From Fidelibacterota bacterium (lineage in GTDB: Bacteria; Fidelibacterota; UBA2242): 44,879 nt of DNA. The notes under the pieces are model-generated. The model did no database searches. It saw only the letters and a program-made list of their open reading frames with translations, and was not told the DNA's origin. The stretch spans positions 1 to 44,879 of the forward strand of contig JBNGDF010000010.1 in the NCBI GenBank assembly GCA_049975265.1, in the 5' to 3' direction. Shown here in pieces: positions 31,412-32,099 of this stretch. Both the position numbers and the translations under genes were made by a program. The stretch's first letter is position 1; each line of letters begins with the position of its first letter.

Positions 31412-31534
31412 TCAACAATTCGGGACAGGCTGTCCGGAATTATGCTCTACCAACCGGCGATTGAGATCACCTGTCTGACCAATGTAATAGCGATCCTTAC
31501 TTGGACTGTACAGTATATATACCGTCGTTGGCAT
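31412..31534 (-). pseudogene. Truncated second copy of the GIY-YIG gene (35 identical codons, then PVPNC*)
   Basis: Identical to 31747..31850 up to HNSGQ, then breaks at GCCTGTCCCGA. Confidence 0.85.
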
Positions 31535-31537
31535 GTT

Positions 31538-31610
31538 TGGTCGGGGTGAGTCCCGATTGGATCGGGATGAACCTCCGACCTTCCCGACCCGTCGGGACGC
31601 GCTAACCGGA
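31538..31610 (-). other. tRNA-Pro-derived mimic (D-loop to CCA) with two palindrome substitutions
   Basis: TCCGGTTAGCGCG-[TCCCGACGGGTCGGGA]-AGGTCGGAGGTTCA-[TCCCGATCCAATCGGGA]-CTCACCCCGACCA. The unbracketed blocks are identical to tRNA-Pro. Confidence 0.85.
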
Positions 31611-31850
31611 TTTGATCAATTCCTCAATGAAACGTCGACTTTTCATCCGTTTCAAATAGGATTCATAGTGCACCGCAGCACGACGATTATCAAACTGACA
31701 CCGGTATACCAGCTGCCACGGTATTCCCGCCCTTGTCGATTTGGATTGTCCGGAATTATGCTCTACCAACCGGCGATTGAGATCACCTGTCTGACCAATG
31801 TAATAGCGATCCTTACTTGGACTGTACAGTATATATACCGTCGTTGGCAT
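31602..31850 (-). CDS. Stand-alone GIY-YIG nuclease family protein
   Basis: VYIL...YYIGQT..L..RL..HN.G...T....PW.LVY...A...E..LK. Confidence 0.92.
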
Positions 31851-31853
31851 GTT

Positions 31854-31931
31854 TGGTCGGGGTGAGAGGATTTGAACCTCCGACCTCTTCGTCCCGAACG
31901 AAGCGCGCTAACCGGACTGCGCTACACCCCG
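31854..31931 (-). tRNA. tRNA-Pro (CGG)
   Basis: CGGGGTG acceptor, anticodon arm CTTCG-TTCGGGA-CGAAG, GGTTCAAATCC, encoded CCA. Confidence 0.97.
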
Positions 31932-32099
31932 AAAAAATATCTACTTTTAAAAGAACCGTTACAATTAATGCCTGAAAAAGCCTCCGCCCTTCCCGACCCG
32001 TCGGGACGCGATAACCGAATCCCGATCTATTATGATATTCTCTCTTTATAAAAAACTTTTAAATTTAGAATATGAAAGGATTTTTACAAAATAAATTTC

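Follow-up and report, generated by a model that had tools for sequence, protein, structure and literature searches.

A single-domain GIY-YIG nuclease gene behind tRNA-Pro and its hairpin-substituted tRNA copies in a Fidelibacterota genome: a candidate selfish cassette of tRNA and tmRNA genes

In a stretch of 44,879 nucleotides from a Fidelibacterota bacterium (GTDB lineage Bacteria; Fidelibacterota; UBA2242; NCBI GenBank assembly GCA_049975265.1, contig JBNGDF010000010.1, positions 1 to 44,879 of the forward strand), a cassette was found in which a tRNA gene, a small nuclease gene and altered partial copies of both follow each other on the minus strand. This whole stretch is referred to as the window; it sits in contig C10 of a 66-contig, 2.86-Mb metagenome-assembled genome that we designate G000. 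An intact tRNA-Pro(CGG) gene is followed, after a gap of 3 nt in which no promoter-like site was found, by an open reading frame (ORF) encoding an 82-amino-acid (82-aa) single-domain GIY-YIG nuclease, then by a pseudo-tRNA-Pro fragment that extends from the D-loop to the CCA end and finally by a truncated second copy of the nuclease gene (Table 1). The downstream fragment equals the tRNA except for two replacements: hairpin H1, TCCCGACGGGTCGGGA (16 nt), takes the exact place of the 17-nt anticodon arm and hairpin H2, TCCCGATCCAATCGGGA, that of AATCCT in the T arm, both with the stem TCCCGA/TCGGGA. The final codons of the nuclease, TCC GGT TAG, are tRNA D-loop sequence, the stop codon TAG included. 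A preliminary description of this DNA had reported the order of these parts, their 316-bp period, the two exact replacements and the D-loop ending of the nuclease; our comparison confirmed the layout base for base and upheld the other observations. The truncated copy is still recognised as a GIY-YIG domain (PF01541, 31.7 bits, E 1.9e-7), and 0 mismatches separate the two tandem copies over 120 nt.

Two further elements were recognised in the window. Upstream of the intact tRNA-Pro, at a distance of about 50 nt, lies another tRNA-Pro-like fragment, 93% identical to the downstream one (repeat families D2-D4), in which the same hairpin TCCCGACGGGTCGGGA stands in for the anticodon arm. The TCGGGA just upstream of this fragment is the leftover of a D-loop hairpin, present in intact form as TCCCGATAGATCGGGA in G002, the closest relative (neighbour protein 95% identical). 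The end of the window is occupied by a second cassette of this type, which follows the transfer-messenger RNA (tmRNA) gene. Its ORF encodes an 80-aa GIY-YIG protein and has a 55-nt direct repeat on either side, and the near-hairpin TCCCGATTTCATCGTGAC begins 7 nt after the tmRNA gene. The tmRNA-linked homologues in relatives carry another hairpin, GCGTGG..CCACGC.

Table 1. Position of the two cassettes, their parts and the features around them in the window
Feature	Position	Strand	Remark
Upstream pseudo-tRNA-Pro fragment	32030..31981	-	D-loop hairpin remnant ATAGATCGGGAT, D-arm, hairpin, T-arm start
Hairpin of upstream fragment	32006..31991	-	in place of anticodon arm
Intact tRNA-Pro(CGG) gene	31931..31854	-	ARAGORN; Rfam RF00005, 67.4 bits
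82-aa GIY-YIG nuclease ORF	31850..31602	-	Pfam PF01541
Downstream pseudo-tRNA-Pro fragment	31610..31538	-	D-loop to CCA
Hairpin H1	31597..31582	-	in place of anticodon arm
Hairpin H2	31567..31551	-	in place of AATCCT of T arm
Truncated second nuclease copy	31534..31412	-	homology stops at 31431, open frame continues to 31412
TCCCGA half-site beside truncation	31425..31420	-	
Tandem repeat, 2 x 120 nt (family D1)	31431-31550 and 31747-31866		period 316, 100% identity
Sm_multidrug_ex gene	32100..32576	-	PF06695, E 1.5e-28; upstream limit of cassette, syntenic in relatives
Terminator-like hairpin of tRNA-Arg	31369-31387	+	downstream limit of cassette
tRNA-Arg(ACG)	31286-31362	+	downstream limit of cassette, syntenic in relatives
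tmRNA gene	44099-44452	+	second cassette follows, 44459..44879
Near-hairpin behind tmRNA	44459-44476	+	
80-aa GIY-YIG ORF	44584-44826	+	behind tmRNA gene
55-nt direct repeat	44463-44517 and 44825-44879		either side of the 80-aa ORF
tRNA-Sec	9768-9861	-	hairpin 9797-9813 in long variable arm

The 82-aa protein matched PF01541 with 49 bits (cut-off 22.6, E 7.9e-13). The active site of GIY-YIG enzymes consists of a conserved tyrosine of the GIY motif, a tyrosine of the YIG motif, an arginine, a glutamate and an asparagine. Among 24 relatives taken from different RNA-gene loci, Y6, S10, G19, R27, H31, A59, E63 and K67 were invariant, and Y17 and N32 were kept in at least 90%. An AlphaFold2 model (predicted local distance difference test score 93.1) displayed the element order E-E-H-E-H-H, with the three-stranded sheet and its flanking helices present, and comprised the GIY-YIG core without further domain; as modelled, the protein is a catalytic core only, lacking a DNA-binding domain. 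The top PDB matches were all GIY-YIG domains, and the nearest sequences and folds were those of UPF0213 proteins (BH0048, EF2693) and of the Slx1 nuclease domain, with a sequence match to 1zg2 (UPF0213) at E 1.5e-6 and Foldseek TM scores of 0.63-0.70 to 1zg2 and Slx1. The domains of I-TevI and UvrC were weak structural matches (I-TevI at E 0.2-0.3), and the NCBIfam model of group I intron endonucleases reached 18.6 bits compared to a cut-off of 56. UPF0213 includes the E. coli YhbQ type, and we know of no described link between this family and tRNA genes or hairpin repeats. Slx1 cuts branched or structured DNA and possesses a further zinc-finger domain and a partner, Slx4.

In its own genome, the protein has nine matches, eight of which lie behind a co-oriented intact tRNA or tmRNA gene, whether immediately or in second place within a tandem. 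The remaining match follows a tRNA-Asn fragment at the start of a contig. Since contigs C6 and C30 overlap, these nine matches amount to five loci, at tRNA-Pro, tRNA-Asn, tRNA-Ser(GCT), tRNA-Ser(TGA) and tmRNA. Every one of the five shows a downstream partial copy of the RNA gene and a repeated unit, and the hairpins in these copies are inserted into, or replace, the anticodon arm, the variable region or the T loop. Together with 40 relatives, 41 genomes were covered, and matches were present in 35 of them, frequently several per genome, at contig ends or in tandem pairs, in agreement with the tandem amplification put forward in the preliminary description. In the relatives, 89 loci with 108 matches were examined after about 17 rows with E above about 1e-5, four matches lying within open frames of 583-1071 aa and one more row had been left out. 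A co-oriented tRNA or tmRNA gene was located within 800 nt upstream, mostly at 0-66 nt, for 69 of the 108 matches and a co-oriented tRNA downstream for three more; 18 matches lay within 300 nt of a contig edge, three had an antiparallel tRNA only and 15 had no tRNA. The resulting 72/108 compares to a chance rate of about 0.6%, our own estimate from 46 tRNA/tmRNA genes in 2.86 Mb. Searching named genomes of other phyla with this single protein as query, a co-oriented tRNA was found within about 400 nt at 17 of 24 loci (10 upstream, 7 downstream). These genomes include Bacteroidota, Patescibacteria groups, Acidobacteria, Thermodesulfobacteriota and one gammaproteobacterium; the best named matches, Melioribacter and Melioribacteraceae, would by themselves suggest a host of the Ignavibacteria type, and the protein behind tRNA-Pro in a Melioribacter sp. 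is 49% identical to the 82-aa protein. Across genera, the nuclease clades pair with certain RNA genes (Pro, Asp, Asn, Ser, Glu, Met, Val and tmRNA), and many truncated or stop-containing copies occur among the relatives. The association with tRNA genes in homologues is thus found in all three sets, and of the earlier statement that the element targets tRNA genes it is this association that we retain, as no cleavage or insertion event was observed.

Copies without an ORF were seen in the same genome as well. Hairpin-bearing fragments of tRNA-Ala(GGC) stand in tandem behind tRNA-Ala(GGC) (G000 C13:42746-43100), a full-length tRNA-Met copy has four hairpins in its D, anticodon and T loops (G000 C56:137-420), and an array of tRNA-Pro-like fragments lies distant from any tRNA gene (G000 C15:32690-32830). 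No tRNA-Pro(TGG) gene was called in the G000 assembly.

The hairpins are few and strongly overrepresented in the window, where the pattern occurs four times compared to 0.04 expected and where none of 100 shuffles reached four. In the whole genome it was found 14 times compared to 3.4 expected analytically, and three control arrangements of the same half-sites gave 3, 3 and 4 occurrences. About nine of the 14 genomic copies lie in stable-RNA genes or pseudogenes. As single-stranded DNA (ssDNA), H1 and H2 fold on either strand, at -20.3 and -20.9 kcal/mol (z -2.9 and -3.0). Across the cassettes of tRNA-Pro homologues the stems are kept and the loops vary in sequence as well as in length (CGGG, TCTTA, TCGAA, CCCG, TCGCAGA and others, about 3 to 7 nt), a variability that would fit recognition of the folded stem rather than of a spaced duplex site. 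A duplex palindrome bound by a dimer is disfavoured by the varying length of the spacer. Repair footprints resembling P-nucleotides were rejected as the origin of the hairpins, given that the same stem recurs at sites with unrelated flanks. Of the REP-like palindrome proposed in the preliminary description, the conserved stems with varying loops that accompany the nuclease stand, and the REP-like character does not, the abundance being 14 copies per genome.

The TCCCGA type is present in the nuclease clades of Pro (7/8), Asp (3/3), Asn (4/6, stems of the TCCCG type) and Val (1/1), and also in that of Ala; clades with this type are at least 41% identical to the 82-aa protein. It was absent from all eight relatives of the Ser-TGA clade and from all eight of the Glu clade. 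In the tmRNA clade, which is 30-37% identical, the genes of two of eight relatives carry GCGTGG..CCACGC. Hairpin type thus appears to track the relatedness of the nuclease across different tRNAs.

Similar hairpins also turned up in RNA genes away from the nuclease loci. The long variable arm of tRNA-Sec in the window is TCCCGAGACAATCGGGA, with the same stem as the cassette hairpins, at a position that tolerates any hairpin. The gene for RNase P RNA (G000 C19:12300-13000; RF00010, 263.9 bits) contains three hairpins of the TCCCG type, one in a loop of 30 nt that has 7 in the family model and another coinciding with a regular helix. Some fragments of tRNA-Pro and tRNA-Ser(TGA) carry another hairpin module behind GGTTC of the T loop, made up of TCTC-NNN-GAGA and then CCYC-TTT-GRGG (loci L012 and L019 of relatives; G000 C6:2130-2900).

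At least eight other genomes have tRNA-Pro(CGG) followed, after 2-6 nt, by one of the closest homologues of the 82-aa protein (58-68% identity). All intact tRNA-Pro homologues end with GGT TAG in D-loop sequence, which continues in relatives as CGCG-TCCCGA-loop-TCGGGA-A(A/G)GTC, and a second TCCCGA hairpin occupies the T loop in most of these cassettes. Several genomes also have upstream fragments that hold the 5' part of the tRNA and bear hairpins in both D loop and anticodon arm. The arms of the fragments match the T-stem and acceptor variants of each host (GTCAG/CTGAC in G026, GGGAG/CTCCC in G005), which indicates that the fragments were made from, or homogenised with, the resident tRNA. 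On a contig of G002 (C55:1-216, locus L040), the tRNA-Pro position holds, just before the contig end, a copy with the D-loop hairpin CGGGGTGTAG-TCCCGATAGATCGGGA-TTCGGTTAGCGCG, so that close genomes do not agree in how many fragments precede the working gene.

At the syntenic site formed by Sm_multidrug_ex, tRNA-Pro and tRNA-Arg(ACG), the cassette is present in different states. G003, of the same genus, has a bare tRNA-Pro; G001 and G009 have truncated ORFs without fragment; full cassettes occur in seven genomes (G000, G005, G011, G021, G022, G023 and G026). These empty, remnant and full states at one site fit a selfish element. In nine genomes, identity of the nuclease was compared to that of the neighbour gene, a weak test in which saturation is possible, and gave a Mantel r of 0.20 (p 0.18), without co-divergence beyond two close pairs; for G005 (same genus) the nuclease is 58.5% and the neighbour 81% identical, and for G034 (other family) the values are 66% and 56%.

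The truncation junction of the second nuclease copy is common to G000 and G002, whose sequences differ there at 9 of 92 positions, so the duplication is older than their split; that the two copies in G000 nevertheless show no difference over 120 nt points to gene conversion between units. Beside this junction the preliminary description had remarked a TCCCGA half-site. It exists in the window and reads TTACCGA in G002 despite the same junction; being probably a coincidence, it has been dropped from the mechanism. Contigs assembled from two public sequencing runs, about 98% identical to the window, join position 31872 back to 31568 and thereby contain a 305-bp unit, tandem or circular, whose fragment has an intact T arm and no T-loop hairpin; that hairpin consequently varies between close strains. 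In any one public run, the share of sampled words present is 0.35 at most. In run X1, the contig of the repeat unit closes on itself with a word depth of 105, and the contig of the upstream flank has a depth of 2.6 (window 31568-31883); in run X4, the respective depths are 4.7 and 2. Such word depths are not copy numbers and would fit a long array, a one-unit circle or another abundant organism alike.

The preliminary description raised the concern that the repeat stems from faulty assembly, and for a genome reconstructed from a metagenome this does receive some support from the 66 contigs, the many copies at contig ends and a 120-nt repeat at 100% identity. The beginning of C6 and the end of C30 contain the same two tRNA-Ser genes, 1917 nt apart, the end of C23 and the start of C22 contain the same tRNA-Asn fragment, and several stretches within the cassettes of G000 read N; as contig ends overlap or abut inside cassette repeats, the cassettes break the assembly. 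The junction in the independently assembled G002 and the 305-bp back-joint in contigs of two public runs together argue against an artefact, as regards the structure and not the exact copy number, and tandem units exist in several relatives. An artefact is for these reasons an extremely improbable explanation.

The closest published counterpart is the Ssn family (Chenal et al. 2025, PMC11893778). SsnA of Neisseria meningitidis is a 94-aa single-domain GIY-YIG protein (cd10448) that binds its hairpin repeat as ssDNA only, cuts a few nucleotides 5' of the hairpin and requires the sequence of the stem, not that of the loop (PMC11893778). The ssnA gene is flanked by NTS/SRM hairpins, the authors liken the repeat-gene-repeat order to an insertion sequence or mobile element and themselves draw the comparison with systems of the REP/RAYT and IS200/IS605 type, and SsnA limits or modulates natural transformation (PMC11893778). 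The cassette described here resembles this family in the single GIY-YIG domain of about 80-100 aa, in the short GC-rich hairpins on both sides of the gene with a conserved stem and a free loop, and in the palindrome core, TTCCCGCG..CGCGGGAA in Ssn compared to TCCCGA..TCGGGA and TCCCGC..GCGGGA here. It differs in that the hairpins lack the GTCWY flank, are few (14 per genome), lie inside copies of tRNA genes where they replace tRNA arms, and accompany a gene fused to the 3' end of a tRNA or tmRNA gene. Supplementary Data 4 of the Ssn paper lists a cd10448 homologue in Melioribacter roseus with 6 SRMs observed compared to 5.95 expected and hence no enrichment (PMC11893778), which fits a lineage whose Ssn-type genes use other hairpins. 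Seen together with the 49% identity between the 82-aa protein and the one behind tRNA-Pro in a Melioribacter sp., this listing is an indirect hint at a relation to cd10448. The word tRNA is absent from the main text of that paper (PMC11893778).

Mobile systems that combine a small nuclease gene with short palindromes acting as ssDNA hairpins are also known as REP/BIME-RAYT and IS200/IS605. These differ from the cassette in their HUH (Y1) transposase, none of which was found among the nine flanking ORFs, and in that the palindromes here are of low copy (14 compared to 3.4 expected). GIY-YIG enzymes, for their part, hydrolyse DNA and are not known to form a covalent intermediate. The preliminary description had called the system undescribed. 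This no longer holds for a single-domain GIY-YIG gene flanked by its own hairpins, which has been published as the Ssn family (PMC11893778); it stands for the embedding in tRNA/tmRNA genes with hairpin-substituted tRNA fragments, since a full-text literature search found nothing that links small GIY-YIG genes to tRNA fragments or hairpin-substituted copies, though subscription journals and unopened supplements may contain it. The layout, in which an Ssn-like nuclease and its hairpins have become part of tRNA and tmRNA genes, is widespread.

We interpret the cassette as a selfish, Ssn-like pair of nuclease and hairpins that is kept and copied by recombination between tRNA repeats, a reading to which we assign a probability of about 0.5. 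The nuclease gene is probably co-transcribed from the tRNA promoter, as the gap of 3 nt and the lack of a promoter-like site between the tRNA and the ORF suggest. The enzyme would then probably recognise the TCCCGA/TCGGGA stem in single-stranded or extruded DNA and nick nearby, as SsnA does with the NTS hairpin. The resulting break could be repaired off the neighbouring intact tRNA, a sister copy or another allele. Such repair would homogenise the repeats, would create and remove tandem units and would copy the cassette into an empty tRNA-Pro gene, with tRNA sequence providing homology on both sides. Hairpins in place of tRNA arms would moreover keep the spare copy non-functional as a tRNA, and would limit uninterrupted homology to 13-16 nt, thereby protecting the gene from deletion.

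Several observations weigh against this interpretation. The individual steps, from co-transcription over stem recognition and nicking to copying by repair and protection of the gene, are what we infer from sequence, and entry into a naive tRNA gene is a weak point, being unexplained by the nuclease if the hairpin-bearing fragment alone is cut. The likeness to Ssn rests on size, layout and palindrome core and not on a sequence assignment to cd10448: the PDB search returned no SsnA match, NCBIfam gave no family above its cut-off for three of the nucleases of the genome, and the SRM motif HGTCWY..YYVSBRH..WNVSBRG..RNCYNB had 11 matches in the genome, none at a GIY-YIG locus, so that the hairpins are not canonical SRMs and only their palindrome core fits. 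Their flanks moreover have no conserved orientation, whereas cutting by SsnA needs an oriented flank. The association between hairpin type and nuclease clade has the identity of the RNA gene as a confounder. Occupation of the same syntenic site in several genera makes long vertical residence or a use to the host possible, the missing correlation between nuclease and host gene fits horizontal exchange and equally saturation, and the identity of the two copies in G000 could partly reflect short-read assembly.

Four explanations compete with this one, the assembly artefact dealt with above being one of them. Seg/I-TevI-type homing endonucleases combine a GIY-YIG domain with a separate DNA-binding domain that reads a long duplex site; SegB has several domains and is much larger than the 82-aa protein. 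In phage T4, SegB acts as a free-standing homing endonuclease of the GIY-YIG kind from within a tRNA cluster, with a 27-bp site that includes the T-psi-C stem-loop motif, and it cuts duplex DNA and spreads by break repair that carries flanking tRNA sequence along (PMC2330249). An enzyme of this kind could cut cassette-free tRNA genes in duplex form, in which case the hairpins would confer immunity by removing the target from the spare copy. In keeping with this, the nuclease gene lies next to tRNA genes and, like that of SegB, occurs in some relatives and not in others; the hairpins strike exactly the T loop and the anticodon arm; and the site is empty in G003, reduced to a remnant in G001 and G009 and full in seven genomes, in the manner of a homing cycle. 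The 82-aa catalytic core, having no extra domain for DNA binding, nevertheless fits such an enzyme poorly, as do the weak structural matches to I-TevI and UvrC; the intact tRNA next to the ORF retains both supposed target motifs, and reuse of one stem at different positions and in different tRNAs is unlike simple mutations that destroy a target. SegB itself is a phage enzyme, and the abstract describes no hairpin-substituted tRNA fragments or tandem units (PMC2330249). We regard homing as unlikely. A function kept by the host on a strong tRNA promoter, for instance that of an ssDNA nuclease restricting incoming DNA that carries hairpins, with the fragment and hairpins processing, stabilising or regulating the transcript, is about as improbable in our view. 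Conservation of the catalytic residues and of an intact ORF at a syntenic site in several genera, the gap of 3 nt to the tRNA without a promoter-like site and the modulation of natural transformation by SsnA (PMC11893778) would all agree with it. A site that is empty or reduced to a remnant within the same genus, the many truncated or stop-containing copies, tandem duplication in several genomes, five loci per genome with different paralogues, copies accumulating at contig ends and arrays of fragments without an ORF speak against it.

The fragments could finally be passive debris, that is, scars of slippage, of unequal crossing-over or of an old island of the integrase type, with the ORF as an unrelated passenger. 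Islands that target tRNA genes leave direct repeats of tRNA 3' parts, and the order of intact tRNA, inserted DNA and repeated 3' part does recall their attL/attR arrangement, just as the ORF-less, hairpin-bearing fragment arrays on C13, C15 and C56 recall leftovers. Here, however, the inserted DNA measures 250 bp, further fragments precede the tRNA, and the repeat begins at the D-loop and has been rebuilt with hairpins. The absence of an integrase or transposase at the locus, reported in the preliminary description, was corroborated: no tyrosine or serine recombinase was present among the nine flanking ORFs, which belong to housekeeping families (peptidase M16, MBL fold, DUF498, beta-lactamase family, Sm_multidrug_ex, GT2, Cpn60, PPIase and ApbE), and the flanks are syntenic with the empty site in G003. 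An unrelated passenger would also not be expected to follow tRNAs at the rates seen in relatives and in other phyla, nor would debris show exact substitutions with one conserved stem, and this explanation is disfavoured as a very unlikely one.

Beyond the selfish cassette at tRNA-Pro, we tentatively consider a wider reading, possible and in our judgement rather doubtful, of a class of minimal selfish elements of stable-RNA genes. These would consist of a hairpin-guided nuclease of 80 aa that lacks a DNA-binding domain, with the universally conserved tRNA or tmRNA gene as homology arms and with recognition hairpins planted in the loops of the spare copy; breaks in ssDNA would drive gene conversion, tandem amplification (possibly through one-unit circles of 305-316 bp) and transfer across phyla, and hairpins would have colonised loops of RNase P RNA and tRNA-Sec.

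The cassette poses the question of how a catalytic core without DNA-binding domain persists in a gene that is indispensable to the cell. If our interpretation is true, a very small nuclease element without a name in any annotation pipeline resides in essential tRNA and tmRNA genes of many phyla. Its presence would account for stray genes annotated as 'GIY-YIG nuclease family protein' beside tRNAs, for partial tRNA genes by which tRNA predictors are misled and for the breaking of contigs at tRNA loci when metagenomes are assembled. The newly described ssDNA nucleases of the Ssn type would moreover gain a natural genomic role beyond Neisseria, and ssDNA tools could draw on a panel of nuclease/hairpin pairs with differing specificities.

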